Source of the DNA: Dimargaris cristalligena
Taxonomy: Eukaryota
Direction: 5' to 3'
Assembly (NCBI GenBank): GCA_003614675.1
Contig: ML002321.1
Location: forward strand, 1-42,033
DNA length: 42,033 nt
A program made the translations under genes and the position numbers. Below the pieces are notes generated by a model. The model made no database searches, was not told the origin of the DNA, and was given only the letters and a program-made list of their open reading frames with translations. Positions 1,860-40,713 of this stretch are shown here, in pieces (the first letter of the stretch is position 1; every line of letters begins with the position of its first letter).

Positions 1860-3316
1860 CTACTCCATACCCTGCATCGACAGACCAGGTATCCAGGAGC
1901 AGATATGGGTAGGGGTAATTTGCCGAAACTGCATCTGGGCACCCAGGGAGATGGCCTGGTCTGAATTTTGCAAGTCGTCGATATATGCGATGGCCACGGG
2001 ATGTTCCGAATCAAACGCTGTTAACAAAAAATGCCAGGAGGGCTGCGCGTGGCCATCCAGGGTAACACTGATATTGGTTTCCGTGTTCTAAATTGGGAGA
2101 ACAAAAGTAGATGTGGCAGTCCAAGAACGGAGTGATTAATCGATCCGATCGGCTTCCTATGGCTGTCGAGCTAGTGGGAGAGAATACAAAATAGACCACT
2201 CAACTTTCTCATTTGTACATGATGGCCTACTGCCATCAAAGGCTCTTACATTAATGACCACGGTGTGGTCGTCGTCGGTAACGATAAGCGGTGCCACCCG
2301 ATGGAATTCGATCCGCTGAAGGTCCAGGTTGAGGCCGACCCCTTTGGCTTTAACAAAGCTTTCCTTGAGACACCAGAACCGGTGGAACTGAGCCAACTGG
2401 ATTCGGGGATCGGGTGACCGTTGGATACAGGCCCATTCGAAAGGGGTAAACTGCTCAGTCATGTAACTGAAAAAGTCGGAGACCGATTCGTGGCGGGGTG
2501 GCTCGATTCGACTGACATCGACGCCCAACGCCGCCGCCCGCCCTGCGACAAAAATCACCCAGTTGCCGTGGTGGGATAGATTAAATCGGAGGTCCAGGAG
2601 GGCCTGGCGGGTAGTCGGGGCCAGTTTGGTCGCAGCGGCGGAGTTGATTATGGGTTTATTATGGGCCGAACGGGTTAATTGGACGTCCCACCAACGGGTT
2701 GGGGAGGGATGCGTTTCTTCCAAAGTACTGTGGTCTATGGCCCGACAGTAGTGGAAGAGAAAACAGCGCATCAAGATACGACCGACCAGAGCGAGCCGGC
2801 GATCCTTATCAAACATAAATTGTTGGATTCGGGTGCGCTCCTCGGTCTGTACCCAGGTTAAGAGGTGGTCCATGAGCTATCCAGCGGCCGAGCGATATAT
2901 ATAACACATATATGCATGGGTAGATATGGACAAGGTCAGTGAGATACAAGTTGAGTCTTAAGGAAGGTAGTAAGGCAATGAGGCCAACCGAGGAGGGTTT
3001 ACTGATTAGTAGTGAGTTGCGTGCCGAAAAAGTTAGTCGAGTGGTCAAGGCATGTGGCATTCTCTAAAGCGCATAAAGGGAGTCGAGGGTATTTGGCTGG
3101 AGCTACTGGCTCATTCCCGTAGTGGTGGTGGGGGGGCCGTTTTAAAATTACCCTTTGGTCTAACCCGGGCTGCGTCACATTAAAAGCCCACTGCACTAGC
3201 ACAGGTCGGTTGAGATCAGTAGGTACCGGTGAAGAGTCCGTCGACGGTGGTGCGGGAAGGCCGGCGTTGCTATTACCCATGGAAAACGGCGAGGCTGAGT
3301 GGTCCGCCGCGGCCAT
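1860..3316 (-). CDS. LYS5: Sfp-type 4'-phosphopantetheinyl transferase (Lys5/AASDHPPT/NpgA family)
   Basis: Exons 3316-3152, 2876-2250 and 2087-1860 join in frame across GT-AG introns. Motifs: VQWAFN, RSAHNKP, FNLSHHGNWV, LGVDV, FHRFWCLKESFVKAKGVGL (WxxKE), C-terminal LDG..W.F....DSEHPVAIA. Confidence 0.92.
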
Positions 3317-4256: not shown

Positions 4257-4724
4257 TTAGTTGTTTTCCTTGTAGGCCATGGCCATCTCCTCACCCATGG
4301 CGGTCAGGACAGTGATGCTCAGGTCCTTGCCTTCGTCAAAGTCCGCCTCGATCTTCTTGCCCAAGTCGTTGTCAGGCACCTTGATATCGTCCTTGGCGAC
4401 ACCTTCGGAGGTGATCAAATTTAAGTAACCGCCGTCGATGTTGCAGAGCTGGTATTCGACACGGGTGACGTTGGGGACGTCCATATTGTGGGTAGAGGGA
4501 GACAGATCTTCGTACTTCCGGCCAGTGAAGATATCAATACCGACCATGTTGACCTTGGCGTGACCGTGCTTACCGGTCTTGGAGGTAGACATATCCACGA
4601 TCTTGCAGGGGCGACCCTTGATGACGACGTAGCCGTTCTTACGCAGAGCCGAGCACTGGATAGGGTAAGTCATGGAGGCACCGGAGACGGCGGACTCGAA
4701 GGTGTGATCATGTTCTTCAGCCAT
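4257..4724 (-). CDS. eIF5A: Eukaryotic translation initiation/elongation factor 5A
   Basis: 155-aa uninterrupted ORF with the hypusination motif [12 protein letters not shown] and [12 protein letters not shown]...[10 protein letters not shown]. Confidence 0.98.
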
Positions 4725-4756
4725 AGTGATGTATTGGGGGGGATAGAGGGGAAGAA

Positions 4757-5032
4757 CTAATGAGGAGGGAAAAGGAGGTTGCAGAAGATGGGTATAGAAA
4801 GATGAAAAGAAGGTGAGAAGAGGCGAATCATATACTGCAACGGGTGAATCCTACACGCCCTTTGCAGCAGTGAGGGGAGAATTACTCTACGGCGGGAGTG
4901 AATAGTCACGATGATCAACCGGGAACAGCTTGGATCTGCTCCACCTATATTATAGGATACTATACCCTAGATAAAGACGCCTCCCACCACTATGGGAGGT
5001 TAGCATTAAAGCTTGAGTACATTGCAACTTAC
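4757..5032 (-). other. Probable 5'-UTR intron of eIF5A
   Basis: Strong donor AG|GTAAGT at 5032 and a pyrimidine-rich tract ending in TAG at 4759-4757, 32 nt upstream of the ATG. Confidence 0.55.
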
Positions 5033-7462: not shown

Positions 7463-8082
7463 TCTTTGTATAAAGAGGCGTGCGGCCAAGCCCAATTACT
7501 AACTAGATGGAGCGAATGGTTTTCCGAGTCACACAGTCGAGGTAGATAGAGAATATGTGGGAGGAATGGCTGAAGACAATGCGCAAGGGGTGTGGGATAG
7601 TCAGGCAGCCATAGAACTAACCATCTTATTTGGCCTCCCATGTAGTTGGGGCCTCTGGAAATTATCCCTGTTCTTGGCTTATGGAAGGTCTTTCCATACT
7701 GAACGAACGAAGCGGCATACTTCTTCGTCCCTGGAACAAATCCCGTTAGTGCGGCGAAGCCCCGCACATTCAGTTTCACAGGGAAGGACTGGCTTGGTCT
7801 GGCTTGACTTACAATTCCAAGACCTCTCTCCCCTATGAGATGGTTCGAGAAGCCAGGCCAGCTGACGTACGTGTTCTTTTAAACTTAAGCAGTAAACCAA
7901 GGAAAGTGACCACCAATCAAACAACCTTGGATTCACCCGTTCTATTACGTCCCTTTTCGCTAAAACAGCAGCGCGGCCTTGTTTCCCCGTTCGGGCTTTC
8001 TTTGTTACTTTACACTTTGGTCTTGTCTTATATTTTACTTTCCGGCTCGTCGTCCCACCCCACTCGTCCGCTCTTGTTCGTT

Positions 8083-8760
8083 ATGGCCCGTTCCCGCAAT
8101 TCCGGCCCCGTGCAGGCCTACCTAGTGGCCTACAACCTCTTCTCCATGGTCAGCTGGGCCTGGATTCTCTACCTCACCTGCGCCCACCTGCTAACCACCG
8201 GGTCGCCCCAAACCCTCTACCCGGTGATTGGCTACCCCCTCACGGTGATCCAGACCCTCATGTTTCTTGACCCCCTGCACTCGGCCCTGGGTCTGGTGCG
8301 CTCGCCCCTCCTAACGAACCTGGTCCAAGTGGCCTCCCGGATCATTGTGGTTTGGCAGCCCCTCCAGCTCTTCAATGTCCCCGCCGTCACCACCAGCTGG
8401 GCCCTGGCCACCATGACCATTGCCTGGGGGGTCACGGAAGTGGTCCGCTACGGTTACTACGTTTTCAATCTGCTCGGTATGCAGCCCTACCCCCTGACCT
8501 GGGCCCGGTACACGTTCTTTTACGTTCTCTACCCCGTCGGGGCCACTAGCGAAGCCGTGCTTATTTACCACGCTCTCGACGCTGCCAAGGCCTTCAGTCC
8601 TCTGATCTATTATATCATGTGCCTCGAAATTTTCCTCTACGTGCCCTTCTTCCCGCAAATGTACATGCACATGATTCGCCAGCGCAAGAAGACGTTGGCC
8701 CCCGCTACCCCGGTCAAGCGTGCACGCACCCATTCCACACCCATCAAGAAAAAGATCTAA
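8083..8760 (+). CDS. PHS1: Very-long-chain 3-hydroxyacyl-CoA dehydratase (PTPLA/HACD family)
   Basis: Start taken at MARSRNSG (ATG 8083). Motifs: YLVAYN, HSALGLVRSP, QVASR, AWGVTEVVRYGYY, WARYTFFYVLYPVGATSE (catalytic Y/E), MYMHMIRQRKK, C-terminal KKKI (KKXX ER-retrieval signal). Confidence 0.96.
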   Translation: MARSRNSGPVQAYLVAYNLFSMVSWAWILYLTCAHLLTTGSPQTLYPVIGYPLTVIQTLMFLDPLHSALGLVRSPLLTNLVQVASRIIVVWQPLQLFNVPAVTTSWALATMTIAWGVTEVVRYGYYVFNLLGMQPYPLTWARYTFFYVLYPVGATSEAVLIYHALDAAKAFSPLIYYIMCLEIFLYVPFFPQMYMHMIRQRKKTLAPATPVKRARTHSTPIKKKI

Positions 8761-9002: not shown

Positions 9003-10397
9003 TTAGGAAGAGGAGGGGGTCTTGGACGCCGGAGTCCAGTTGGGGTCAAATGTTTTGGGGATGGCCAACCAGGCCTGGTTGTAGTTGGGATCAACCTTCT
9101 CACACCCAGTGAGGGCCCACGGGGTCACCTTAAGCATGAGACTCGACTCAAACATAAACGCTTGGGTGTTGTCCGCCACTCGACCGGGTTTCAATTCACG
9201 GGCCGTGGCCGCCTCGACGGTTTTAGCGTCCGGACCGTGGGGGGTCATGAAGCTGTGCAGGCTGGCACCCCCCGGTAGGAAGCCGTCCCGTTTCGCCTCG
9301 TATTCACCGTGGATCAAGCCCATGAATTCCGACATGGCGTTGCGGTGGAAATAGGGTGGGCGGAAGGTATGTTGCTGCACTTCAAAACGGGGTGGGAAAA
9401 TGACAAAGTCGGCAATGGCCGTGCCAGGGAAGGCCGACTTGCAGGTGAGGACAGTGAATACGGAAGGGTCAATGTGGTCGAACGTAACGGAGTTCACGGC
9501 GCAGAAGTCCGCCAGATTGTAGCGGTAGGGTACGTAGTTGCCGTGCCAGGCCACGACGTCGAATGGGCAGTGGGCCTGGCGAGCGGTAAACAACCGGCCC
9601 TGGTACTTGGCTACGATTTGCCACTCGGCGGGGTCATTCTCCGGATCATCGTCCTGGTAGGCCGCGACGGGGGCCTGGAAGTCCCGGGGGTTGGCCAGCC
9701 CATTGGCCCCAATGGGGCCGAGGTCGGGTAGTTCAAAATGGCCGTTGAAGACCTCGAGTACATACCCGCGACTGGGTCCGTGTGGGGTTTCCACGCGGAA
9801 CCGAATCCCGCGGGGCACCACGACAATTTCGTTGGGGCGGACCTCCAACCAGCCAAACTCGGTCTGGATCACAAGCTCACCAAGCTGGGGCACAATCAGC
9901 CAGTCCCCGTCGGCACTATACAGGGCCCGGTGGGCCATGGAACGGTTGCAGGTGTACACGTAGATGGCCAGCCCCTCGCGGGTGGCTGGGTCCCCGGCTC
10001 CGGCCAGGGAGTTCAGACCCTCGACAAAGTCGCGTGCGTCATCCTCCGTGGGCAAGTCAAAGGGGCGCCAGCGGAGTTGAGTGGGGGTTACAATAGCTTC
10101 AGTATGGGGGTCGGAATAGCTGGCACACACGTGCTGACCTAAGGTATCGGTAGCGGGTTGAAAGGGCTGGTGAACGGCGGCGGGGCGGATGCGATAAAAC
10201 CAGGTGCGGGCGTTTTCGTGGCGCGGAGCCGTAAAAGCGGTGCCAGAGAGTTGCTCGGCGTAGAGGCCGTAAGGACACCGTTGGGGGGCGTTTTGGCCCA
10301 CGGGAAGAGCGCCAGGGAGTGCCTCGGAGCTGAAATGGTTGCCGAAGCCGGAAAGGTACTTAAAACGCAGGGGGGAGTTGTCGGAACGAACGGACAT
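9003..10397 (-). CDS. hmgA: Homogentisate 1,2-dioxygenase
   Basis: Intronless ORF, first ATG at 10397. Motifs: YLSGFGNHFSSEA, GQNAPQRCPYGLYAEQLSGTAFTAPR, GPIGANGLANPRDF, FRPPYFHRNAMSEFMGLI and SLHSFMTPHGPD (Fe-ligand His/Glu/His). Confidence 0.98.
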   Translation of the reverse strand: MSVRSDNSPLRFKYLSGFGNHFSSEALPGALPVGQNAPQRCPYGLYAEQLSGTAFTAPRHENARTWFYRIRPAAVHQPFQPATDTLGQHVCASYSDPHTEAIVTPTQLRWRPFDLPTEDDARDFVEGLNSLAGAGDPATREGLAIYVYTCNRSMAHRALYSADGDWLIVPQLGELVIQTEFGWLEVRPNEIVVVPRGIRFRVETPHGPSRGYVLEVFNGHFELPDLGPIGANGLANPRDFQAPVAAYQDDDPENDPAEWQIVAKYQGRLFTARQAHCPFDVVAWHGNYVPYRYNLADFCAVNSVTFDHIDPSVFTVLTCKSAFPGTAIADFVIFPPRFEVQQHTFRPPYFHRNAMSEFMGLIHGEYEAKRDGFLPGGASLHSFMTPHGPDAKTVEAATARELKPGRVADNTQAFMFESSLMLKVTPWALTGCEKVDPNYNQAWLAIPKTFDPNWTPASKTPSSS

Positions 10398-13989: not shown

Positions 13990-16176
13990 TTACTTGAGCC
14001 AAAAACCGCCGCTCTCTTGAATGGCCCGAAGCAACTTCTCCTCCAGTTTAGCGGGCGTTGCGTAGTTGTACAGCCCCAACTGGTTGAAGCAGGTATGGGC
14101 GACCGGGAACCGATCGCTGTCGGCGCCGTTTCCGAGGCAGGTGATTTGGAAAGTGAACATTGGGGTTCCGGCCACGGGCACGCGGTCACTCCCGGTCACG
14201 AACACCAGAAACTGGCGCTGGCGCTGGCCGTCCCACGATTCGAGGAGGGCCCAGAACTGGGCGATGATCGGATCGTGTTCGGGGTCGAACCCGTGGTAGA
14301 CAGTGACGGATTTGAGCTGGTCCCAATCAATGGATTCGGCCGAGCTGCCGCGGACCAGGAGTTCGATTTCCTCGGGATGGAACAGGGAGAGGGCGTTCCC
14401 ACCGCAGACCAGGTGGAACCCCCGGCGAAAGGGGTCGAATTGACGGGTCACTGATTCATTGAGGACAAAATCAATGTAACGGCGTACGTAGCGGCCCCGG
14501 TTGGCTCGGGTGACGGGGGTATTGACGCCGTCGGGAATAAGGGGGACGGCGTGCCGGCGGCCGTAGATATCCTGGTCGGCGGTGAAAGTTAAACCAAAGA
14601 CCTCCTCGATATCGTCGCCGGGGTAGTCGAGCAGTTGACGCAGGCCCCGGGCCAGCGACGGACGTAGCTCGCGGAGGTCCCGGAGGCCGACGGAGGCGTT
14701 ATGCAGTTTTTTATAGCAGGCGAGGGGAAAGCGGACGTCTAGAATCGTGGAATTATAGATGGCCAGGCCCAACACCACACCCACTAAAAAGTACTGGTCG
14801 CTGGTCTCTAAACTGGCGGGGTTGAACCAAAACAGCCCCGACTCCTCGTCCAGGGTGAACATACCGTGCATGGGATTAAACAAATCGCGCAATAGTAGCA
14901 TAAACCATTCTTTGGTTAGACCGCCGGCGTCGACCCCGGCTTCGTCGGCAAATTTAACGTGGAGTTTCTTTTTTAGGTCCGTTTCCCGGGCGGCCAGCTG
15001 GTTGAGCGAGTCTTCCAGGACGCATTGCCGGCGAACCTGGAGGGACAAAAAGGGTTCGGTCTGGCGGTTCCTCAGGATATTGGTCATCAGGGCCTCTTTA
15101 ATCTTGGAATCCATCTGGCGCCGGGCATCCAGGCGCATGATTTGGAGTTTGGCCCCCATGGTGATCAAGGTGGGGTATTGGCAGAAGGCGAACTGGCCTG
15201 AACGCTGCTGCCAGGCATCGTAGTCGGCGGGCAGGTCCACAAAATCGACCATAGAGTTGTAGAAGTCGGGGATGGGGATACTGACTTGGCGTAGTTTGTT
15301 GGCAGCGAACAGAAGGGACATCACCCGGGCGGCGGCCTTGAAGCACCAGTCGGACTCGTAGGGCATAGCCGACCGAATGGTCCCGGCGGCGGTCAAGCGG
15401 CGGTATTTGGTCAGGCGGTGGGTGATGAACTGGTTGACCCATTCGACGCGGCTCCGGAATAGGGCGAGGGGCAGCTGGGAGAACCAACGGACCAGATCAT
15501 GGTGCAGGGAATTGCTGAGACAGGAAAGGAGCCCCAAGAGCCGTTTAGTGATTTGGTGGTGATAGGCCGTTTCGCGGGGAAAGGTGTATTGGACCAGGAG
15601 GGGGTTTTCGAGTAGAATAACGAGGACCCGTACCTCCTCCTTATGGCGCAGGGTGCGGGAGGGTCGCCGAAGTAGGCGTTCGATAGCCCGCATCATGGTG
15701 CGGACGTAGTCGGGCGATAAATCGAGGATAAGCCGGTAAGCGTCACGCACCTCGGCTAGGGCCACCCCGGGGTCTTCGGAGGTGGTCGGGCGACCGTTGC
15801 CGAAGCTATGGTTGAGACGGTCCCAGTGGGAAAAGGTTTCCCCCAACAGGTGTTTGAACTGCCCTTGGCTAAGCTTGCCCCGCCGGTGGTCCTCGAGGGC
15901 CTGGCGTAACACAGCCAAGGTCAGGGGTTGGTGGCGTTGCTTCTCGGCCGCGGCCGGGTCCCTGTCGTGTAAGTCATTGACAGTATCACAGACGGTGCAG
16001 CGGAAACAGGTGGAGCCCATTGGGTAGCGGAGCTTGCAGTCACAGCACATGCAAAAGGTCACGGTGGTGTCGGCGTGTTCGGGACTCCCGGGGGGGCTGG
16101 CCAAGGCAGACAGGTCCAGTAAATCGGGGGGCGATGTGAACCGCTTCCATTGAGCCGGGCCGCGAGTTTGGGCCAT
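13990..16176 (-). CDS. HECT E3 ubiquitin ligase, Hul4/HECTD2-like
   Basis: Intronless ORF, ATG at 16176. HECT motifs: FAFCQYP, LQVRR, DLKKKLHVKFADEAGVDAGGLTKEWF, GLAIYNSTILD, FVTGSDRVP, PVAHTCFNQL (catalytic Cys). N-terminal Cys cluster CMCCDC...FRCTVCDTVNDL. Confidence 0.93.
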   Translation of the reverse strand: MAQTRGPAQWKRFTSPPDLLDLSALASPPGSPEHADTTVTFCMCCDCKLRYPMGSTCFRCTVCDTVNDLHDRDPAAAEKQRHQPLTLAVLRQALEDHRRGKLSQGQFKHLLGETFSHWDRLNHSFGNGRPTTSEDPGVALAEVRDAYRLILDLSPDYVRTMMRAIERLLRRPSRTLRHKEEVRVLVILLENPLLVQYTFPRETAYHHQITKRLLGLLSCLSNSLHHDLVRWFSQLPLALFRSRVEWVNQFITHRLTKYRRLTAAGTIRSAMPYESDWCFKAAARVMSLLFAANKLRQVSIPIPDFYNSMVDFVDLPADYDAWQQRSGQFAFCQYPTLITMGAKLQIMRLDARRQMDSKIKEALMTNILRNRQTEPFLSLQVRRQCVLEDSLNQLAARETDLKKKLHVKFADEAGVDAGGLTKEWFMLLLRDLFNPMHGMFTLDEESGLFWFNPASLETSDQYFLVGVVLGLAIYNSTILDVRFPLACYKKLHNASVGLRDLRELRPSLARGLRQLLDYPGDDIEEVFGLTFTADQDIYGRRHAVPLIPDGVNTPVTRANRGRYVRRYIDFVLNESVTRQFDPFRRGFHLVCGGNALSLFHPEEIELLVRGSSAESIDWDQLKSVTVYHGFDPEHDPIIAQFWALLESWDGQRQRQFLVFVTGSDRVPVAGTPMFTFQITCLGNGADSDRFPVAHTCFNQLGLYNYATPAKLEEKLLRAIQESGGFWLK

Positions 16177-17680
16177 GTTATACAGAGCGAGGGGCAAAAG
16201 TAGGGTGGGGAAGCCTTTTTGCTTAAAGAAAAAGAAACAGCAGGTCGGAGCTGCGGGGGAATGCTATAGTCATAGACAGACGTAAAGAGGGGAGTGGTTT
16301 AATAGGAATAATAGCAACAGTGAGTGGAATCGGGGAAAAAGGACCCGGAAAAGGTCGGGGAAAGACGAATGGGTGTGTTGGGTGGGCTATCGTGGCGGCG
16401 ATGGGGTTCAAATAACAGCAGGGGAACTATGCCGATAGGGAGGGGGCAGCACCATGCAGAAAGCCGCCCACTTATGCGAACGGTCGACCTTTCGAATAGC
16501 TGTACTGTACTGTAGCCCAAAACCAGCTGTCGTACCAGTCATACCTTCCCAAACAGCTGCCACACCCCCGTACAACTCGTCCGGATGATCGGCTGGTGCC
16601 ATAGGCCTGTTGATTTTACTTTTCAATTTTTAAAGCAAATGGTCGACCCGTTAACTACACGCTATAGTGTTTTTCCGGTGCATTTTACTTTGCTAGGTTA
16701 AAAGTCCGCTCACCCCTACTCGGTTGAGAAAGAGTATCTCTACCTAACCCAGCCGATGTATTGCGAGACTTTAAGCACGGAACCTTCAACTTTCCCATCC
16801 ACTGCTATGTTGTTCTCCAATGGAGTCACCTGGCCCAGTGTGGCAATCCTACCCAAGTCCAGAAATAGCGCACATGATGTATCGAGACCACCACTCAGTC
16901 AAATCAATTTCCACCTTGATCAGTCCCCATCACTAACCAGTCCTGCTTATAACAATGGTATGGTCTAACCAGGGGGATTACCCCTCCTTGTCACCTTTTG
17001 CACGTCCAGGGAGCACAATCCAACATGGTGAAAGCGGCGACAAAATTATGGGCAAAGCACTGGCTGTCCTCCCAACACTACGCCCAGGCCGGGAATTACA
17101 ATGGCCATCAAGTTGGTTTTTCTGGAATTTGAGTTTTTTGTTTTTATAGACAAATGTTTAATTACTACTTTATCAATAATTAAATGTCCCTGGAAGCATG
17201 TGTATAATTTGCTATTTTATGCCCCGACGTATTTAGTATGGCCGATAAGGCGTGTAATTAACTACCGATTGCTCTCCGGGAGGTGCTTTTCGTCTAGGAG
17301 GCCAGGTAACATCCTCGCCACTTGGACAACGGGCTTCTTCTGACGGTTGTACCAGTTCCCCGTCCCTATTCCCACTGTCACTGAGCCCGCTACACAGAAC
17401 CAGCCACTCAGATGCCTCTACGTTTTTTTTCTTGCGCTACTTGCTTATTTTTGTTAGTCCGCTTTCCACCAGGCAAGGAAAGGCATGGTCATAGATGGGG
17501 AAGGAGGGGGTGCTTTATAGGGGAGAGGTTCAGCTAGACTGTATAACGAAAGATCCGATTGGCGAGGCTATCACTTACTGGTTAAAAATAGCCAATTTTC
17601 CCATACACATATCATTCAAAATCCTGTGTAGTGGGGTTGGATCTCGCCCATACCCCAACCCCCTGACCCACTCGATAACC

Positions 17681-23246: not shown

Positions 23247-26200
23247 CTAAGGACCATTCGTAACTTTAAGATGCAGGCCAGGAAACTTTTGGTATAGCGC
23301 GGAGTCACATAGAATGCATGAGGGCGTGCACTGTAAGGTCCAATCCAGGAGACTACCCTGAAGAGCCGATGGTGATGACTCAAGTGAGGGCGGACAGAGT
23401 CTTTTAGCAGTGCAGGTACGGCAGGATTGGTTAGTAGGGGTATCAATCAAGGTGAAGGTTAGGAAACAACGGGCCGACGAGTGTCCATTCGGGCATTCAG
23501 CCCTATCCAGCTCGGCCTTTGATAAAATTTCCGCCTGGCACAGGGGGCACCGTTCACTGGACGTTGCTGCTGTTTCGGCCATGGGGGAGGAGGAGGAGGG
23601 CAAAAAGGAAGGAGAAGAAAAAGAAAGCGAATCGACCCATGCTTGTAGAGCGGGGAGACTAGGGTGGGTGGGTAAGAACTGCCGGGCCAACCGGATACTC
23701 GTAGTCAACCACTGCCGCTCGGCGTCCCGGAGCAACCGGTCGGGGCAGCGGGTCCGGACCGACTGGAATAGCTGGAGCACCAGGGAAAGCCAGTGCAACT
23801 GAATATGGCGCCGACTGGTCGCCGCACGCGCGGCCAGAAGATCCTGGAACCAGGGAATAGTGCGGCCAGCGTGCCAGATGGCATTCGTTTTCTGCTGACA
23901 TTTCACGGCCGGGTCGTGGAGAAAATGCATCCAAATCGCCGTTTGCCACCAAGTGGACAGGTCCGCTTCGGCGGTACCGCACGCGGTCGAAGAGCCGGAG
24001 GGGATCGTCAGCCCTAACTGGAGGTTGGGTTCCTCGTCGAGGCGTTCCGCTAGCAAAGGGTAGTCCAGCGCTTCGCTGAGGAACTGGCTAACGTCCTCCG
24101 GTTTCCAGAAGAATTGGGGATTGGGTTCCGTTGCCCGCTGGTTGAGAACCGCGCACTGGTACGCGTCAATGACGTACTGACAGGTGTCCCAAATGCTCCG
24201 GGCAGGGACTTGGGGGTCGGCCAGTCGTCGACTCAATTGACCCATCGTATTGCCCAAGCCCCGGAAGTTTTGGTCGATGTTAATCATCAGCAGGTACGAG
24301 TAGTTGATGGTACGGAAAATATAGGTATCGTGAGGTCGCCATATATTCAGGCATAGGGCGATGTAGTCGCCATGGGGTGACATGGCAGCACCCCAGAATA
24401 TAATCTTCATATTATTGGCCGCCTCGCCGTCATCCATCAGGTCATCCTCGTCCGCCTCGCCTTTCTGGTCGTTGTTATCATCATGGCTTTCGGTGGCGGT
24501 GCTGCCGTGAAACATCTGGTAGACCCCACGGATATAAGTCGTAATGGTCTGGCTATTCCGGCGCGTAAGCGTCTCGCAGGGAAGGAGGGACCAACTCGTA
24601 TGAGGGTGAGGGGTTGAAAGGTCGGTTTTTTCTAATCGCAGCGCATAGTACTGCCCGTCTGAACTGAATATGTGTAGAAGTCGCTCGACTTCCGACCATG
24701 CAGTGCCTACGAAAAGCAGATGATACAAATGGCCGAGTGGGTAGGAGAGGCGTTAGTTCAAGAGCGACGGTAAATACAATAAACATCGGATAATAACCCG
24801 GAAAAGGGCCGGCCGGCATAAACGATGACCAGATAGGCAGGGTGCTCTAGGTAAGGTGTATGCTACATATCACCCCCAACAGTTTAAAAAATATAGTAGC
24901 CAAGGCCATCTCATCTTACCGGCAATCATTCCCACATAAGGCAGAGTATGGAGGGCGACAGGCGACAACTCCCAGGTTAGGTCCTCCGTGGATTGGAGCG
25001 TAGGTAATGGAATCAAGCCGATCGAATAGTCTTTGGCTACCACCAGCAGGGGTTTATCGCCGTCTAAAATGTAAGTCAGGGTGGTAACGGGTCGCTTATC
25101 GGCTTCTAACGACTGCCGAATGAGAGGGGCCTGAACCAAAAACACTTTTGGATCATCCTGGCTAATCTGGAGACACACCCTGAAGATATCGACCGAACCG
25201 TCAATGGCGACACTTAATAGGGCCGAATAAGCCGGGGGAGATTGGGACTCGGTCGGTGATTCGACAAAATTGGACCAGGCCAGGCGGGTCGCCCGACCGG
25301 ATCGAATTGAAATTGTGGCTAGGGGTTCTCCTCGATCAGAGTAACTGGTGCCCGGGAAATTCATTAGAAAGAAACAATAAAAATAAAAGAGACGGTGTCA
25401 TGGTTAAGGTGCCGGTGGGCCACTAAAGTGTCTGTTCAACGATGATTATGAAAAAAAACTCCGGTTGAGTAGTATTATAGTAGTCGATATCAACTGATTC
25501 CAGAAAATAGAACTAACCTCCAAAAATGAAGTTGGCCTTTGGAGTTGGCCGCGGCGATGATGGATAGGGGCGATTCGTAAGTTTGGGGTTCGCTGATCGG
25601 TTCTGACCAACTTATTGCTACCGATCATTGTAAACCAAAATACATTCGCAATATTTCCGGAAGCCAATGGCTTATCAGGTAGTGTTAGGATAATTGGGTG
25701 TCAAATAGGCTGGATTGCGGCAAGCTGTCATATATTGATAATGGAATACGCGTAGGGACCTACCTTGGAGGGGGTCGACGGGTGTGTTATCAGCAGGGAC
25801 TGTCAATTGCTGGATCTGGGGAATAAATTATACAATTGGGAAACACAAGCAAACGACCAATTCAGGGAGAATGGTGTTAGACTAGCGGTGGGTGGCCGAG
25901 AGACAGGTGCAGGCTCAAGTCTAGGGGGGCCGCTGCCTACAATTATGGCATACCGTAATGCAAGAAATCGATGGACATTATTTAACTACATACCTTCTCC
26001 CATGTCTCCCCGCCTGCCGATACAGAGCACGAAAAAATGAGCAACTGATGGTCAATTGTCAGACCCAGCAAACGGCAGCCCCCATAATTAGCACTATACG
26101 GTGACCATTCAACTCCCCGAAATGCTTTAGTATTTGATTGCCATTGCTTGCGAACAACGCTGTCAGCTACGAGTGGTTTAGCGGGAATATAGCAATAATG

Positions 26201-27189: not shown

Positions 27190-28184
27190 ATGTCAAGTTC
27201 CAAAGCTTCCGCTAAAGCCGCCCCAGCCCCGGCCAATCCGGCTATGGAGGTTGACGATCAGCCCACAAAACCCCAGTCGAAGGTCAAGAACAAGCAGCGT
27301 GTCCTCATGGTTTCCACGCGGGGCGTGACGCAAAGGTAGGTTAGATTCCCTTATTTATGACCGGAACATTATTTACCACGCCCTTCCAATTCAACCCCCT
27401 GAAGCCGCTCCACCCGCTAACCTTATGCAAAACCCCACGTTTACCTACTCCACCCCCTTAACCCCTTTCGGCTATTAGACAGCGTCATTTGATGCAGGAC
27501 CTCGAGGCTATGTTCCCCCACTTCAAGAAGGATAACAAGCTGGACTCCAAGAGCAATCCTATTCTGGTCAATGAATTGGCCGAGCTCCATAACTGCAACA
27601 ATGCCATGTACTTCGAGGCCCGCCGACACACCGACCTGTACATGTGGATTTCCAAGACCCCCAACGGGCCCAGTGCCAAATTCCAAGTTCAGAACATTCA
27701 TACCATGGACGAGCTGCGTCTCCCAGGCAACTGCCTCAAGGGCTCGCGCCCGCTTTTGTCCTTTGACCAGCAATTCGAAACCAAACCGCACTACCAGCTG
27801 CTCAAGCAAATGTTTATCAACATCTTCAACGTGCCCAAGAGTACCCGCAAGAGCAAGCCGTTTGTGGATCATATCCTGAACTTTAGCATCGTCGATAACC
27901 GCATCTGGTTCCGTAACTACCAGATCATCGAGAAGGACCCGACCTCCGAGAAGGGCACCAAACCCGAAACCTCTCTGGTCGAGATCGGCCCCCGCTTCGT
28001 CCTTAACCCCATCCGGATTTTCGATGGGAGCTATTCGGGGGGACCGCTGTGGGATAACCCCCACTACGTATCGACCGGTCTGCTCCGCAAGGTGCAGAAC
28101 AAGGATAACCGGGGAGGGTACGACTCCATCGAGAAGGAGGAGGAGTCGGAATCAGAGTCGGATTCGGAGCCCAAGTCCGACTAA
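27190..28184 (+). CDS. BRX1: Ribosome biogenesis protein BRX1 (Brix domain)
   Basis: Exons 27190-27335 and 27479-28184. Motifs: NKQRVLMVSTRGVTQRQRHLMQDL, PHFKKDNKLD, ELAELHNCNN, PNGPSAKF, HTMDEL..GNCLKGSRPLLSFD, KSKPFVDH, IWFRNYQI, LVEIGPRFVLNPIRIFDGSYSG. Confidence 0.95.
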
Positions 28185-32839: not shown

Positions 32840-35272
32840 TTAGACAAGATGGAAGGTGCGAATAGTGCCATGGCTGCTGGCCGCTAGCAGCACATCGGCG
32901 TCTGGTTTCCAGCAGACTGCGCTGACAAACGACGGAGTGGCCGGGTTGGTGGGGGTGGGGAGCACCTGGTTGGTGGTGGACGGGAGTTCCTGATCAAAGG
33001 GGGTGCGAAAGACGGGTTGGGACAAGGCGCGGTGGTAAGTAAAGACGCAGTTAGTTTCACTGCCGCAAGTGATCCAGTCATTACGGACGGATAGCCCCAC
33101 GAAATTCTTTTCGTTGGTGTGGCCACGGTAAGTGCGTTGTCCGATGCCCAGGGGGTTGGATTCCGGGATGCCGTGGGTCAGGGCTTGGGCTTGGGCGTTT
33201 TCAGTGGGCGAGTCGAGCGTTGGCGATCCGTCAAATACGGACCTGGGGCGGTCCAGTGACCACGTCTTGAGACTGTTATCGATGGAGGCCGACACCAATT
33301 CCCGGCCGTTGATAAACCGGACGAAGGATACGGCTTTGCGATGGCCCTTCAGGGTGGTCACCGGTGTATTCGGGTTGCGTAAATCGTAGTAATAGATATG
33401 GTGATCCGCCGTACCCAAGGCTAGGCAGTGACTCACCGTCGGGTTAAACTGCACGCAACACACATTCGCCCGGCCGTCTAGGGTGAGGGCCGACTGCGAC
33501 TGGCGCATGCACCATATTTTCACTTTGGTATCGTCGCCCCCGCTGGCCAGACGGTTTGGGTCAGTTCGGCTGAAGTCGAGCGACCAGATTCGCTTGGCAT
33601 GTTCGGACCAGGTCAGGGTTTCGACTCCGGTATGGGCATCCCAGAGGGTGACCACCCCTGTGTAGTCCGAGTTGGCGATCAGCGATTTGACGTAGGGGTT
33701 CCAGGAGAGGCAGCTGATTTTATTCCGGCAGGTGAGCTCGTAGGTGGGATAGTAGTGGGGGAGGAGGCCGTCGTCCGTCAATGACCGGGAATCCGGCCGG
33801 TCGGACTGGACCTGGTCATCGACCGGGCCGTAGTGGGACTCGGCCAGCGCAGCCATATCCCGGGCGGTCGTGCTGTTGATGAGCCGTTGGATTCGGTCGT
33901 AGGCAAATACCCGGATCCGGTTATTAACCCCAGCCGTGGCAAAATACTCGCAGTCCCGGTCGAATCCGATACTTGCAATAATCGCTGATGACCGGGTACC
34001 TTCACCGATACGTAGAGTAGCCAGGTGGCGCAGTTGTTTGGACGACGCGCAGGCGGCTAGCGTACGGCTGAATTGATTAAGCAGGTTCGGTTCGTACGGC
34101 GCCTTGAGCCGGTGTTCAAAATAGTCGAGCTGCAGGTCCTCAAAGTGCTGGGTAATTCGCTCGGTTTGGAAGTCAGCCAGCAGGGGACCCGCCAGTTCAT
34201 TGGAGGCCTGGTGGGGCACGAGAGAGAGCGATGGATCGGAGTGATCGTATTCAATCTGCTTAGCGCTAATCGGGGCGGATAGGGTGGGGACATGAGGGCT
34301 TTTGGCGGAGGTCAAAGCGGGCTCGTGGCCCAGGCCATGGAGGGACATTTGGGTGTCCGTGATGTCCTTTTGCACACATGCCAGCTCCTGCTGCAGCATG
34401 ACCAGCAGCTCTTCCTGGCTCGCCTTGGCTTTATTAAGGAACACCAGGAGTGCAGAGAGTTCGGTCCGCTTGGCCTGATCCTGAAGGGCTCGGCGCTGGT
34501 TGAGTAGGAGGCCCAGCAGGATGTCAATGTCCTCGGGTCGGTTCCACGACTGCGTCTGCAGCACCTCTTGGGCCCGCTGAAAGGCCGGTGGGAAAGGAGC
34601 CCGGGCCGGCGGCCGTGTGCGTTCCAACAGGTGATTGAGGGCGTAATTAGGGAATATCTGGTTAGACTCCAGGGCGGCCCGGCAGTTGGGGCAAGTGGCG
34701 GACCGGCGGAGGTGGCGGGATATACAGGTGTAGCAGAATGAGTGACCACACGCGGTCACATGGGCCTCCGATATAGTTTGGAGGCAAATGGGGCACTGGG
34801 TACTGCAGTCGGGCTCAGCCAAGCCTTTGGCCGATTCGAAGGGGGATAGAGCATGGTCGTCGGCCGAGGGCGACTGGGAAGACTGTTGGCCAAAGGTCAG
34901 CGACTGGCTATTGGTGGACAAATGGGCCGGTGACGAGGCGACACTGTTGAGGGCCGGGACTGCCCGACTGGGGTAGTGGCGTTTAGTGCTGCGTTCGTCT
35001 ACGCTGGTGAACCGCCGTGGCCGCCGATTCCGGGGAATGTAATAGGGGTTAAACCGGGCATGTTGCCAGGCCGGAAGTTGGTTCTGGGCTCCCGCCCTGG
35101 TCCCAATCAAAGCGGTATGGGTGGCGGGGGGAAGGTGGCCGGTTGGTAGACTTGAAGGGGCATTATCTTGGACAATGGGGCTGGTAACGGGAGAGGCGGT
35201 GGTGGGTGGTGGCAACGGTGCGACGTTAAATTCCGACGAGACATTAGGAGCCTTGGAAGACGGATTGTCCAT
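32840..35272 (-). CDS. COP1: COP1/RFWD2 E3 ubiquitin ligase (C3HC4 RING, coiled coil, WD40 propeller), ~810 aa
   Basis: Intronless from ATG 35272; an upstream exon is possible (acceptor-like TTTTTCTTTAG at 35349). RING CPICLQTISEAHVTACGHSFCYTCI...CPNC. COP1-specific WD40 motifs: SIGFDRDCEYFATAGV, KISCLSWN, EHAKRIWSLDFS, ANVCCVQFNP, ADHHIYYYDLRN, GHRKAVS, RGHTNEKNFVGLS, CGSETN, FVSAVCWK. Confidence 0.93.
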   Translation of the reverse strand: MDNPSSKAPNVSSEFNVAPLPPPTTASPVTSPIVQDNAPSSLPTGHLPPATHTALIGTRAGAQNQLPAWQHARFNPYYIPRNRRPRRFTSVDERSTKRHYPSRAVPALNSVASSPAHLSTNSQSLTFGQQSSQSPSADDHALSPFESAKGLAEPDCSTQCPICLQTISEAHVTACGHSFCYTCISRHLRRSATCPNCRAALESNQIFPNYALNHLLERTRPPARAPFPPAFQRAQEVLQTQSWNRPEDIDILLGLLLNQRRALQDQAKRTELSALLVFLNKAKASQEELLVMLQQELACVQKDITDTQMSLHGLGHEPALTSAKSPHVPTLSAPISAKQIEYDHSDPSLSLVPHQASNELAGPLLADFQTERITQHFEDLQLDYFEHRLKAPYEPNLLNQFSRTLAACASSKQLRHLATLRIGEGTRSSAIIASIGFDRDCEYFATAGVNNRIRVFAYDRIQRLINSTTARDMAALAESHYGPVDDQVQSDRPDSRSLTDDGLLPHYYPTYELTCRNKISCLSWNPYVKSLIANSDYTGVVTLWDAHTGVETLTWSEHAKRIWSLDFSRTDPNRLASGGDDTKVKIWCMRQSQSALTLDGRANVCCVQFNPTVSHCLALGTADHHIYYYDLRNPNTPVTTLKGHRKAVSFVRFINGRELVSASIDNSLKTWSLDRPRSVFDGSPTLDSPTENAQAQALTHGIPESNPLGIGQRTYRGHTNEKNFVGLSVRNDWITCGSETNCVFTYHRALSQPVFRTPFDQELPSTTNQVLPTPTNPATPSFVSAVCWKPDADVLLAASSHGTIRTFHLV

Positions 35273-35497: not shown

Positions 35498-35520
35498 GTA
35501 TATATATATATATATATATA
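35498..35520. repeat. (TA)n microsatellite upstream of COP1
   Basis: Read directly from the sequence. Shorter (AT)n tracts also occur near 27100, 38550 and 40985. Confidence 0.9.
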
Positions 35521-37592
35521 ATGTGTATCGTTGAAAAAGCTACGGGTCAGCGAGGGAGGATTTAAGCATGTTAAATTAATTGAAAGGGAAAAGGGATTAT
35601 GTACAGATAGACTATTTTATTGAAGAGAAGAACGACGGGCGAAAAGGCTGTTGCCCAAAAGCCAGCCCTATAACTTACTTTATTTCCCTTGTCTTCCTGG
35701 CCTTGGCACCTACCGGTACAGCAGGTCTGAATCCAAGTATTTAAAAGGGGGAGGGGTTATTGTCAAGGACGTGCGTATGGCCGAATATTCCATGCCAGGA
35801 CGTCCAGTTCATTTTAATTTGCTCGCTCCCAACGCGTTGTGTGCAACCCTTGGAGTCGATGCTTGGCTTCGTACCAGGTCCTCTCAGTTGGTACGTTGCG
35901 GTGGCACCATTCCATTAACATGGTAGATGGTCCCGAAAGGCCGCAAGTACTGGACCTATATGTTCCTTGCTAGATCGGAAATAATCAATCCTTCATCCCT
36001 TCTCCATCCACAATCAGAGACCGAAACCCCCGTTTAGCTATAAAGCATGGTTGTATTAGCGGATCTCCGCCTCAACTGACCAGCTGCGTGGTACATGGTT
36101 TGGCACCCAAACAGACATCCCTCATGGCCGAAGGGGGAAGCAGCAGCCGGCACATCCCTTCATTCTCATCGTCCCTTATCTATTCGGTATTTTCGCAGTG
36201 CATGGTCCACCACATATGTCCATTTTCCAAGTCAAGGAACCGCTTGGTTAAAAATTGACATCCCGTGAATTCCATCTAGTAATACAAAGTAGAAAATATA
36301 CCAATAAAACTTACAGTATATCATGGTGGCTAGGGCCTTACAAATCCCCTTTAATAGATTTCCATTGTGCGATACCATGGCCAATCTGGCTCCGTTTTAG
36401 GGTATAACAATAGTGGGAAATTACCCTTTGGGTAATAAATACGCCGAGTTCTGAGTGCTAAAGCCCCATTCCTATTGGCCTTGTTGGGATACCAACGCAC
36501 CTCGATTCGGACACCACCAATGAGAACTGCCGCTTCACTGGTATATTTTCAAATAATTAAATGGTCAAATCATTTTGGATTTTGCTAAAATATTAAATAT
36601 ATAAATCAACCTAATGGCGGGGTGGTTGTCTGGCTGACTAGCTCCGAAATCCACACGGGGGTATATAGCTTGGGTACTCTAAAGCAGACTGTCGCTACCC
36701 ATGGCCTCGAGCCTATCCTCGTCAGCATATTTATTTGAAGGGCGTAAAAATGGATTGGCATTTGTCCACCTACACCACCAAGTACAATTGATAATGTGAT
36801 CTATTCAGGGTTCGAAGTAGTTAGCAAGCCAGGGTATATACAACATACGGGTTAGCTTTCGCATTTGGCTTATCTCTTTTGAAAAGGGGCTGGCTTTGCC
36901 TAGCCCCAAGTCATTCAATGCCCGATTTGCCTACACCCGGCAGCTGCCACAGAATCCTGGTTTGTCTGTATTTATTTATATACGATGGAGAGCCCGTAAA
37001 ATGTTTATTTGTATCCTAGTACCCACCGTGTTTTCCTTCTTTCTAATTATTCCCGGACCAGTTAGTTAATTTAGTTATCCAATTATATTTACATCTGCCC
37101 GAGACTTTAATCGCTGTAAGCATACAGTTGCATTTACGCTAGTAACGAAAGAGGGACTGCCTATTAGGCACGAAATACAAAAATAAACAAAAAACATAGG
37201 CTGCCAACTAGTAGCGGTAGAACGGTACATCTGACCATCCTACTGCGGACTCCAACATGTGTTGGCCGTATTGCCATTTCTAGGATAATTTCACCTATTC
37301 AACCCTATGCAACCCCCTCGGAATCTGAGCGGCTATAGCGGAAACTAATAATACAGACGGGTTTATTGGCAGGCTAATGTGGGAGTGGAATTCCATACGG
37401 GCCACCGAGAAAAAGTAAGTACAGACAAGATAAGATAAGATAATAATTATTCGACTCATTAGTTGTTGCAGGACCACTATTGATAAGGAGGTCGATGGAG
37501 AGGCGAGGAGTGACTGTTAGAAAGGCAATCCACGGACAAGCGCCCCGTTCCGTCGAGCAACACTGGGAGAGGATTCGATATATGTAATTCAT

Positions 37593-38310
37593 TTAGAAGC
37601 GCACGTAGGCATTGAGGCAGGTCAATTGATCACCCTGGCTTTTAGTCTGCGAATCCTTGGTATCGGGCAGACGGGCGATGGCGTTGACAGTGTAGATACC
37701 CTAAACAATATCAAGCAATGCAACAGAGAGCAGAGAAAGACCGACCCAGCAATGTTGGTTAGTAAAGTAGCCAAAGGTGATTTTTGAGAAGAGGGAGCCG
37801 AGGGGCGCGGTTGGCGACGAATGTAATACAGATGGCGTAAATAATTCCTATCAATAAAAAAGGACTTACCGGGGGGATTTCCTTGGGGATGTCGACCTCC
37901 TTGCTGAAGCGAATGTCGCCCTCCTCAATGGGGCACTTAAGCCCGATTTCGCCAACCAGGTCGCACAGGTCAAAGCGGCGAGTCAGCAGCTTGATGAGGC
38001 CATACTTGACAGACACATCGATATAACTGCCGTTGACGACGCGTTGGTTGACATGGCCAGAGCCTTCGATGAAGAGCTTTTGGCCCTTGTGGGGGGGATC
38101 GGGGTTCAGGCGGACCGACTCGATGGTAACTAAGTCCTGGTCATTACCACAGTAGTAGAGGCTTTTTCCCAGAGGGGTACCAGTGGGGGGGCGATTGAGG
38201 GACTGGCTGCCGAACTTGGGCCAGGTTACGGTGTCTTTGAGGACAGGCAGGACGTCAAGCAGTTGGGCACCGGCCAGACTTACAAGTGAAAGGACCACGA
38301 GGGCTTTCAT
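37593..38310 (-). CDS. NPC2: ML-domain phosphatidylglycerol/phosphatidylinositol (sterol) transfer protein, 182 aa
   Basis: Exons 38310-37870 and 37700-37593. Signal peptide, LYYCG, LNPDPPHKGQKL, VKYGLIKLL..FDLCD, KCPIEEG, DIPKEIPPGIYTVNA, QLTCLNAYVRF. Confidence 0.95.
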
Positions 38311-40713
38311 GGTGAGAATAGTTGTTGAGAAGGGCAGAAGGGTAGTGTAATGGGTAGAAGAGCCTACGGTGAAGAAGCTCGGGGATGTGGGAGAGACAGA
38401 TAGAACTAAAGTAGAGGAGAGGGGTTGGGAGAAAGGGATGAGACAGGGTCGCTGGGAGAGGGAGCGTGTACGCGGTGGCTGGATAGACAGCGCCAGCGGG
38501 TGATAGTTTTATACTTGAAAGTACTTTCTTATAAAAGTAATAGGTATTATTATATATATATCGTCCCACTGGTGGCGGTAAATGACAGGGTTGAGGGGTC
38601 ATGTGATAGGGGCGATGGTCCCAACAGCCCAAGGGATATGGCAATCCTGCTAAATGGGTCTGAGGAGAGGGGGGGGGATTGCCACTGATGCTCCCCCCTC
38701 TCACTCTTTATAGATATTAGTATACACTGCTTATAAAAGCAGCCTGCGCCACCACAGGGGCTTAATGGAATCAAATTCTAATTTCCTATACATAGGTTTA
38801 ACACAATCAATTAACTATCCGGAGATATTTCATTTGTTGGATAGCGATTAGCCATATAAAAAATAGAAGTTACTTCGACTTCTGTTATTCGGCCCAGCTA
38901 GATTCCAATGCACCTGCTCAGCCCCCTACTGACCGTCGACAGCTTTCCCCTTTGACATGTCCACGCTCCCGGTTACAAGCCTCAGGCATTATCCCAGAGA
39001 GAGGAGCCCTGCCGATATTACTCCACGAAATAAGTATGGGTTTATCTATAATATCTGGTCACCAATATATTGCTGTTAGTATGGTGCGAGGCAAATGTGT
39101 CTATGGGTTTCCATCATTTTTCCAAACAAGCCTTACCAAGTAAGGAGTGTAGTGAGGGGGACCCGTACCTTGACCAGCCAGTGGTGTTATTATATATCTT
39201 TCCGATTTTTATCGATTAATGCAAATGCTAAACTAGCGGGGCCACATAGGCCTCTGTATACACAATCGTAAAAATCTAGCCAAAAACTATATAGGTATGG
39301 TCTATCCTAGTCGCTTTGTTTTTCATGAATCTTCTATTACGCTACTAACATGAAATATTATTCATATATATTTAAGCGATTGCGAGGGGTTTTCCCTTGG
39401 AACGTCACTAAATCACGGTAGCCACTTTGGTCATGCAATTGACAGTTCATTTTCCGCTTGACTGTCACTTTGTCATGCAGGCTTAGGTCAATAAACATAC
39501 CTATCATTTTGTTATATTGTTTAGGGGTATAAGGCCCCACCTGGGTGCCGCCCAGATAGAATGAAGAGAAAGTAGCTATAGAACTCGATCCATTGTGAAC
39601 CAACATACACCAGTCCATTTTTCCTTGCAACGGGTATTGCAAAACTCAGGTTAATGGCATTCACGGACCTGGACACGGGTTGGCATGGATGAAGTTGGCA
39701 ATGATGGGGGGGTAGGCAAATTTGGCCTATTCCAGTTACTTGGGTGTCATTGGATCGGCCACTAACTAGTGCTCATGCTACTCAACATACCCCTATGATC
39801 ATTCATAGTTAAACGGGACGGGGGGGGACCAAAATAGTATTTTATCGCGCCCCACAGCAACCCTTTACCGCTGTTCCTTGTTCTTCATCTATCATAAGGT
39901 TGTTAATATAAGGGTTGTGTGTCTATCGTTGGCTATTATAAAAAAACTGTACATAGTTTCGCGCAGGAATGGGTGGGTTACATTTGCTTACTATATTAAA
40001 CACCACTTAAAACAAGTGCCCTAGCCAAAGGCTTGCTCAAGAAACTAGGGATTGGGCATCCGGCTTGGGCTAATATTTAGGTGAGTATTATATAGCTGCG
40101 GTCTAAATACCTGTAAGTCAACTGCCATTAATTTGATCAATATATATTATTTACTGAATACTTATATTTATTATTTAGCATATCACAGACTACAGTTATT
40201 ATACTTATTAGTGACTCTATTTGTGGTTTTGGCGCACCCAATGCCTGCAATTTGGGTGTTATGCTAAAATAATTGAATATTCTCTCTATGTCCTTGCTAG
40301 CTCTGGTGAATATATGTTTCGGCTGGAATAGGTGTTATTGCCTTGATCTAACTCTTGGAAAATGTTCTTAATGGAATCTATACGCCAGGGGAAGTATCAA
40401 ATGAAGAATAAGAGTCAAGATGCAATGAGAACCCAATTCCCCCTTCACTAACGTATTTAGTACGCGGGTTACTTAATTAATTCTGTAAATATAGAGACCA
40501 GACGAACCAGAGTAGAATACATACAGCCTTAATTATAAGGTATTGAATTTCCCAACACCCATGTGTTCAGGGCTTAAAATTGGTTGAATGTTATAGTGGT
40601 GCCAATAGTTTGCTATGCTAGATATATACTCACTAGGGCTTGTGGGCATAAACTCCGGCTGAATGGACTACCCATATGTAAGAGCAGCCCTTGGGGCTGG
40701 TTGTTTCAAGCCG

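Follow-up and report, generated by a model that had tools for sequence, protein, structure and literature searches.

A very probable ortholog of the E3 ubiquitin ligase COP1, with a conserved VP-peptide pocket, in the fungus Dimargaris cristalligena

Introduction

In plants, COP1 (RFWD2) acts as a central switch in the responses to light and stress; in animals, it regulates the c-Jun, ETS and C/EBP transcription factors. To our knowledge, it has not been reported from the model fungi, as was also stated in an earlier, sequence-only reading of the DNA analyzed here. This DNA is a stretch of 42,033 nt (positions 1 to 42,033 of the forward strand of contig ML002321.1) from the Dimargaris cristalligena assembly GCA_003614675.1, the whole of which stretch is referred to below as the window. 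On its minus strand, at 32840..35272, it contains an open reading frame (ORF) in which the sequence-only reading recognized a complete COP1 with RING, coiled coil and WD40 domains. The question raised by this locus is whether a fungus encodes a genuine COP1 rather than a similar WD40 protein or a piece of foreign DNA, and, if so, whether the protein is likely to have kept its function.

COP1 orthologs are widespread in eukaryotes, and fungal ones exist, according to the review by Han, Huang and Deng (2020). A 2025 review that cites this paper describes COP1 as “conserved from yeast to mammals”. We found no paper tying COP1 to Zoopagomycota, nor one in which RFWD2, fungi and Dikarya appear together.

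Results and Discussion

A complete and intronless coding sequence

The ORF consists of 810 codons and a stop codon and has no internal stop; the ATG is at 35272 and the stop codon at 32840-32842, in exact agreement with the boundaries given in the sequence-only reading. The encoded protein is 100% identical to the NCBI “hypothetical protein” H4R33_001367 of D. cristalligena. Five DNA runs, which come from two studies and bear a single organism label, contain the window stretch; no RNA run was among those listed as containing it. A 22,109-base contig of the second study spans the entire gene with three substitutions and no insertions or deletions. The ORF, the identity to H4R33_001367 and the intact second copy all support a complete, intronless COP1/RFWD2 coding sequence at 32840..35272 (minus strand). 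The three substitutions are located at window positions 33352 (L641M), 33515 (silent, in I586) and 33636 (A546V); they suggest strain-level variation between the studies, with two conservative replacements in the propeller.

The stop-to-stop frame of the gene extends to 35539, and the ATG is the first one after an AT-rich sequence with a (TA)n run that looks like a leader. This run is a microsatellite of ~12 units at about 35500-35530 of the window (read on the minus strand), ~230-260 bases upstream of the ATG, and is thus located inside the stop-to-stop frame but ahead of the start codon.

Domain architecture and predicted structure

In a full-length phmmer search against all Protein Data Bank (PDB) sequences, the best matches were human COP1 (E-values of 1.8e-116 and 3.9e-116) and Arabidopsis COP1 (2.9e-113), values at which the similarity to COP1 is not due to chance. 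The alignments to the human and to the Arabidopsis protein each consist of three collinear stretches that run from the RING to the last residue. For a residue-level comparison, the protein was placed in an alignment of 15 COP1s (A1) from fungi, one dictyostelid, fishes and mosses; 10 of the 15 are fungal, and five of these are from Dimargaritales. The AlphaFold2 model built on this alignment had a mean predicted local distance difference test score (pLDDT) of 66.5 and a predicted template modeling score (pTM) of 0.57. The parts of low confidence are the N-terminus (residues 1-156), the linker 316-362 and the loops 482-503, 676-709 and 763-777.

The protein has the three-domain architecture of COP1, with a complete zinc-binding RING and a COP1-type propeller. 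The C3HC4 RING finger comprises residues 159-198 (34679..34798, minus strand, as are all coordinates of the gene); it is matched by the Pfam families zf-C3HC4_2 (E 1.1e-10) and zf-RING_2 (E 7.1e-10) and modeled with a pLDDT of 81-89. Its eight zinc ligands (C160, C163, C175, H177, C180, C183, C194 and C197) are invariant in all 15 aligned COP1s. Residues 246-315 (34328..34537) form a long single helix, as assigned by DSSP on the model (pLDDT 75-90), which aligns with the coiled coil of human COP1; indeed, the first phmmer stretch against human COP1 (residues 158-461) includes the coiled-coil region. A two-copy prediction of residues 155-320, modeled as a homodimer, scored 0.27 with the mark set at 0.32, which speaks neither for nor against pairing of the helices. 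The C-terminal half carries WD40 repeats (PF00400, E 5.9e-20) and folds, according to Pfam, the HMMER alignment, the model and the Foldseek search, into a seven-bladed propeller of residues 414-810 (32843..34033), for which pLDDT values mostly exceeded 90 (residues 414-809). The claim of a complete COP1 is therefore confirmed by Pfam, the structural model, the phmmer search and the alignment alike.

The RING is preceded by an N-terminal extension rich in Ser, Pro, Ala and Gln (residues 1-156; 34805..35272), which is predicted to be disordered (pLDDT 27-43) and in which only M1 is conserved in the alignment; the other fungal COP1s likewise have long N-termini that cannot be aligned. Two insertions interrupt the propeller. 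Insertion 1 (residues 462-505; 33758..33889) in blade 1 is absent from the animal and plant COP1s and present with varying length in all 10 fungal sequences; in the model it forms a helix (459-478) followed by a disordered stretch. Insertion 2 (residues 677-712; 33137..33244) is a disordered loop (pLDDT below 50 at residues 676-709) found only in the five Dimargaritales sequences (alignment columns 1048-1083). Retained introns were considered as the source of both insertions and rejected, because insertion 2 is in frame in five species and insertion 1 in all 10 fungal rows, and because an in-frame segment with a GTAAG, GTATG or GTGAG donor is present in neither of them; in insertion 2, there is also no in-frame GT..AG segment of 40-160 bases.

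Conservation of the VP-peptide pocket

Substrates of COP1 are bound as valine-proline (VP) peptides by a pocket of the propeller. The register of this pocket was set with the Arabidopsis WD40 structure 5igo_A, for which the chain index + 339 yields the Arabidopsis numbering and puts K, Y, W, C, H and F at 422, 441, 467, 509, 528 and 595; the tagged full-length Arabidopsis chain 7vgg_A (index − 29) gives the same register. In the HMMER alignment to this chain, the equivalents in D. cristalligena are K518 (for K422, in RNK; codon at 33719-33721), Y537 (Y441, SDY; 33662-33664), W563 (W467, KRIW; 33584-33586), C605 (C509, NVCC; 33458-33460), H624 (H528; 33401-33403) and F724 (F595, KNF; 33101-33103), which together span 33101..33721 on the minus strand. 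All six residues are invariant in the 15 COP1s, so that the protein is identical to its orthologs at every known pocket residue. The five residues named in the sequence-only reading (K422, Y441, W467, C509 and F595) thus align exactly, as does His528. Cys509 is a presumed pocket residue, named as such in that reading. According to Lau et al. (2019; PMC6745501), Trp467 and Phe595 pack on the Val-Pro core of the peptide, Lys422 and Tyr441 hold the anchor residue, and His528 engages in a salt bridge; the main text of that paper does not mention Cys509.

All 70 ORFs of the window with 100 amino acids (aa) or more were also scanned for the VP-degron pattern [DE][DE]x2-4VP[DE], which gave one match compared with 0.095 expected from shuffled sequences. 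This sole match (…DDIKVPDND…) is in the ORF of eIF5A (4260-4850, minus strand). It stands alone, in a conserved translation factor, and is probably coincidental; we do not take it for a degron.

Relationship to other WD40 families

The WD40 part alone, when compared with the PDB, scored 298-308 bits with eight COP1 WD40 sequences, 158 bits with the designed protein Tako8 and 140.5 bits with RUP2, while WDR5 reached about 68-72 bits in the full-length phmmer search. The structural comparison gave a similar picture. The top nine Foldseek matches of the model were human COP1 chains from DDB1-DDA1-DET1-Ube2e2-COP1 complexes, and the target-normalized template modeling scores (TM-scores) against the Arabidopsis and human COP1 WD40 crystal structures were 0.90-0.94; RUP2 ranked 30th and WDR5 after RUP2. 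Among the 60 PDB sequences listed, the only RING-WD40 ligases by name were COP1 chains. Of the 131 alignment columns without variation among the other 14 COP1s, the D. cristalligena protein retains 119.

The protein shows all sequence and structure features of the COP1 family that were examined, namely the RING ligands, the central helix, the COP1-type propeller, the pocket residues and the placement in the COP1 clade (see below), and it lacks those of SPA and RUP. SPA proteins have a kinase-like N-terminus and no RING, whereas the D. cristalligena protein has a RING, its residues 1-156 are predicted to be disordered, and no kinase family was found among 25 of the 44 Pfam families that it matches. 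RUP proteins are stand-alone propellers of about 370 residues; the fungal protein, in contrast, has 810 residues and carries a RING and a coiled coil in addition.

Phylogeny and distribution among fungi

All trees were quick maximum-likelihood trees, with branch support from the Shimodaira-Hasegawa-like approximate likelihood ratio test (SH-aLRT) only. The main tree (25 proteins, 696 columns, LG+C20+F+G4) included no RUP sequence and was rooted on two SPA proteins, from which the 23 COP1 rows were separated with a support of 100. Within COP1, the plants (100), the dictyostelids (100), the animals (100) and the fungi (91) each formed one group; Kickxellales and Dimargaritales were united with a support of 92, and the Dimargaritales with 99. 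In a second tree, for which seven representatives were added and six named rows removed, the support of the Dimargaritales was 100. Six of the seven added representatives were placed in or beside named COP1 groups, and one (P0142, end branch 1.62) remained unresolved at the base of the COP1 side.

The protein is thus located inside the COP1 clade, within the Dimargaritales at 99-100, and D. cristalligena is classified by NCBI in Fungi, Kickxellomycota, Dimargaritales. The next matches by identity were Dimargaris xerosporica (46%), D. verticillata (45%) and two Dispira species (45 and 44%), followed by Mortierellomycotina, Geosiphon and many Coemansia at 36-40%. The COP1 gene tree tracks fungal taxonomy, which points to vertical descent and argues against contamination or transfer. 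Judged from these sequences, the inheritance looks vertical, and the ancestral origin proposed in the sequence-only reading was the right conclusion.

The distribution in fungi is broad. Among the 120 best matches listed from the protein database, down to 409 bits, 45 bear fungal species names and represent COP1 orthologs. We take these named species to belong to Kickxellomycotina, Mortierellomycotina, Glomeromycotina or Umbelopsis. Ascomycetes and basidiomycetes are not represented among the 45; an absence of COP1 from Dikarya is consistent with the matches listed (at least 409 bits), which cannot prove it. In NCBI, RFWD2 or “RING finger and WD repeat domain-containing protein 2” is already the name of several Mortierellomycotina entries. 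A profile search with 12 fungal COP1s retrieved 16 proteins at E 1e-20 among 8000 candidates, a set that says nothing about Dikarya; it added an ortholog from the chytrid Polychytrium aggregatum and two plant SPA proteins carrying PF00069. Among 1.84 billion representatives, 1,935 proteins were found at E ≤1e-30. COP1 orthologs occur in many non-Dikarya fungi, and the D. cristalligena protein is of the same kind as the other orthologs and not new in kind. The surprise at finding COP1 in a fungal genome had therefore been overstated, with at least 45 fungal orthologs among the 120 best matches listed, several of them named RFWD2, and with a mention in the 2020 review.

Three of the orthologs are misnamed “coatomer subunit alpha”, namely two proteins of Actinomortierella ambigua (P0033 and P0034) and one of the snail Bulinus truncatus (P0125). 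Presumably, COP1 was confused with COPI, and fungal COP1s may be hidden from name-based surveys in this way.

An active COP1 or a drifting one

Taken together, the results make it very probable that the gene is the D. cristalligena ortholog of the E3 ubiquitin ligase COP1 (RFWD2), passed on by vertical descent from the ancestor shared by fungi, animals, amoebozoans and plants, with a mechanism that can be projected from the plant and human proteins. By analogy with these, the RING would recruit a ubiquitin-charged E2 enzyme, the central helix would pair COP1 molecules into dimers or higher oligomers, and the top face of the propeller would capture transcription factors or adaptor proteins by their short VP-type degrons. 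In the pocket, W563 and F724 would be placed against Val-Pro, K518 and Y537 would hold the upstream anchor residue, and H624 would hold an acidic residue. Proteins captured in this manner would be ubiquitinated and then degraded. The ligase may act by itself or docked on a scaffold of DET1, DDB1 and CUL4. As far as can be judged from sequence, the protein is most likely active, because the functional residues were kept despite faster evolution.

Several observations weigh against a working ortholog of the usual kind. No experimental or functional study of any fungal COP1 was found in the literature, which agrees with the sequence-only reading, where the fungal substrates and signals were said to appear uncharacterized; Han, Huang and Deng (2020) also call the fungal orthologs unstudied. 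In the main tree, the terminal branch of the D. cristalligena protein amounts to 1.72 substitutions per site, compared with a median of 0.23 and with 0.49-0.63 for its sister lineages from the same Dimargaritales node (Dimargaris verticillata and D. xerosporica, Dispira). It is the fastest-evolving member of the tree set, with a branch ~3 times as long as those of its sisters, and its amino-acid composition departs from that of the alignment. In addition, 12 of the 131 otherwise invariant columns are changed (0-6 in the other rows), namely F210Y, K286Q, V432I, E436G, K454R, V565L, S579G, Y650F, T664I, S666N, L670T and N799S. A further point concerns DET1. According to Wang et al. (2026), E492, T494, E511, H512 and D525 of human COP1 are at one DET1 interface, with Glu492 contacting His485 and Arg488 of DET1, and V686-R691 are at the other. 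For human residues 460-630, the human numbering + 46 gives that of the fungal protein; the equivalent of Glu492 is Thr538, whereas Glu or Asp occupies this position in each of the other 14 sequences. At the same interface, E511, H512 and D525 are retained (E557, H558 and D571), and T494 is in a variable column. The second contact loop (human 686-691) is unconserved in every fungal sequence of the alignment. For a fungal DET1, if one exists, these differences are no more than a hint.

This pattern would also be seen if the gene were a COP1 ortholog under relaxed or redirected selection in a mycoparasite, either drifting to loss or retargeted and uncoupled from DET1 and cullin-RING ligase 4 (DET1-CRL4). 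The long branch, the twelve unique changes and Thr538 fit this explanation, as does a divergence that extends over every domain, with identities that in most comparisons and domains are 8-15 points below those of the relatives; for example, the WD40 core is 65% identical to that of D. verticillata (80% for Dispira-D. verticillata) and 61% identical to that of Podila (72-73% for the relatives). Moreover, the gene for homogentisate 1,2-dioxygenase (HGD), which is ten locus tags away and served as a control, showed no excess (terminal branch 0.16 versus a median of 0.26), so that the acceleration looks gene-specific, as judged by this one control gene. However, the ORF is intact in two studies, all RING ligands, all six pocket residues and 119 of the 131 invariant columns are retained, and most of the twelve changes are conservative (F/Y, K/R, V/I, V/L, Y/F). 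At the first DET1 interface, three of five residues are unchanged. The COP1 of Tieghemiomyces, the nearest relative by HGD, was absent from the match lists obtained; it might shorten the long branch, part of which may therefore be unbroken time. We consider loss or retargeting of the gene to be quite unlikely. A bolder proposal is that early-diverging fungi kept a working system of COP1 and VP degrons that Dikarya lost, and that it was remodeled in the haustorial mycoparasite D. cristalligena, acting without DET1-CRL4 or on new, perhaps host-related, substrates. It draws on the ~3-fold, COP1-specific rate, the loss of an acidic DET1-contact residue (Glu492 to Thr) and the lineage-specific loops; this remodeling appears unlikely. 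The faster evolution is a small lead and not a finding.

Two further explanations place the gene outside fungal COP1 altogether. A member of another WD40 family might merely resemble COP1, and the fact that the COP1-type propeller and the VP pocket also occur in SPA and RUP proteins (SPA, RUP2) speaks for this. An SPA protein, however, is opposed by the RING, by the absence of a kinase among the 25 of 44 Pfam families and by the separation of the two SPA rows from all COP1 rows at an SH-aLRT of 100; a RUP protein by the 140.5 bits of RUP2 compared with 298-308 bits for the COP1 WD40 chains with the same query; and another RING-WD40 ligase by the finding that only COP1 chains carry such names among the 60 PDB sequences listed. 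A grouping outside COP1, which the sequence-only reading had named as an outcome that would refute it, was addressed by the tree and by the PDB scores; these put the protein in COP1, apart from SPA in the tree and with COP1 scoring above RUP2. The alternative is refuted as far as the tools used reach, and its probability is minute. Contamination with a plant, animal or amoeba contig was considered only since most of what is known of COP1 comes from plants and animals, and no support for it was found. The closest relatives are four other Dimargaritales (44-46% identity), followed by Mortierellomycotina and Kickxellales, the COP1 tree is congruent with taxonomy, the neighboring HGD groups with the Dimargaritales (SH-aLRT 98), and the stretch is found in five runs of two studies with a single organism label. 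The contig is indeed fungal, with 100% identity to D. cristalligena proteins for both COP1 and its neighbor and with a tree that follows fungal taxonomy; a contaminant is likewise refuted within the reach of the tools and has next to no probability. The vertically inherited COP1 ortholog is therefore the explanation that we retain.

Neighboring genes

The other long ORFs of the window are ordinary eukaryotic genes according to Pfam. The HGD gene (9006-10397, minus strand) is intronless and encodes a protein of 464 aa that is 100% identical to H4R33_001377. HGD groups with Tieghemiomyces and D. verticillata, its nearest relatives; in its tree, the partner of D. cristalligena is Tieghemiomyces parasiticus (SH-aLRT 93) and not D. 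verticillata. The COP1 tree leaves the branching order of the three Dimargaritales lineages unresolved. From these two observations, the genus Dimargaris may not be one clade.

A second E3 ligase is encoded about 17 kb from COP1. Its complete HECT ubiquitin-transferase domain (PF00632, E 3.6e-89) occupies the end of a 757 aa stop-to-stop ORF (13990-16263, minus strand), and its N-terminal part is probably encoded in further exons. By Pfam, the window also contains genes for eIF5A (at the coordinates given above), an ML-domain (NPC2-like) protein (37759-38508, minus strand), a Brix-domain ribosome biogenesis protein (27462-28184, plus strand), a TFIIIC zinc-finger subunit (23247-24752, minus strand), a PTPLA 3-hydroxyacyl-CoA dehydratase (7750-8760, plus strand) and a 4'-phosphopantetheinyl transferase (2157-2876, minus strand).

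Significance

From fungi and amoebozoans to animals and plants, the VP-degron pocket shows the same residues, and the D. cristalligena gene confirms this. The Trib1 and HY5 peptides, for example, are bound by the plant and by the human protein. The fungi that carry COP1 are little studied. The gene described here is one more well-supported and intact example, hitherto unnamed, in a lineage in which the family is common but unstudied. Its value is modest, as dozens of related fungal genomes contain the ortholog, in part with an annotation, and a review had noted that fungi have it.

Comparison with known systems

With human COP1/RFWD2 (PDB 9ltr, 9lul, 9w90, 5igq and 5hqg), the fungal protein shares collinear RING, coiled-coil and WD40 domains along the full length (E 3.9e-116). 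The WD40 core aligns without gaps across 171 residues, with human W517 corresponding to W563, and the DET1-contact residues E511, H512 and D525 are found again as E557, H558 and D571. The fungal protein differs in its 156-residue disordered N-terminus, where the human one is Gly/Ser-rich, in the extra loops 462-505 and 677-712 and in Thr538 in place of Glu492; the DET1-contact loop at human 686-691 is conserved neither in D. cristalligena nor in the other fungi. Partners of the human protein include DET1, the Trib pseudokinases, c-Jun and ETS.

The agreement with Arabidopsis COP1 (PDB 7vgg, 5igo and the 6qto series) is equally close, with an E-value of 2.9e-113 over the full length, identical residues at K422, Y441, W467, C509, H528 and F595 and target-normalized TM-scores of 0.90-0.94. 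However, the Arabidopsis protein forms a tetramer with SPA proteins, and its inputs UVR8, CRY and the phytochromes are plant-specific and are not implied for the fungus. SPA proteins are restricted to green plants, according to Han, Huang and Deng (2020). SPA1-4 and RUP1/2 have a related WD40 propeller, and SPA also has a coiled coil; but SPA has a kinase-like N-terminus and no RING, and RUP consists of the propeller alone (about 370 residues). The scores of both are far below those of COP1, and SPA is outside the COP1 clade in the tree.

The closest counterparts are the COP1s of other early-diverging fungi (Dimargaris, Dispira, Coemansia, Linderina, Mortierella, Podila, Linnemannia, Geosiphon, Dentiscutata, Umbelopsis and Polychytrium), which belong to the same family and share the architecture and the insertion in blade 1. 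They are 36-46% identical to the D. cristalligena protein over 66-100% of the query. The D. cristalligena copy is the most divergent of the set, and insertion 2 is common only to the Dimargaritales. Its 810 residues compare with 909-975 aa in the Dimargaritales relatives, a difference that is due to the shorter N-terminus in D. cristalligena.

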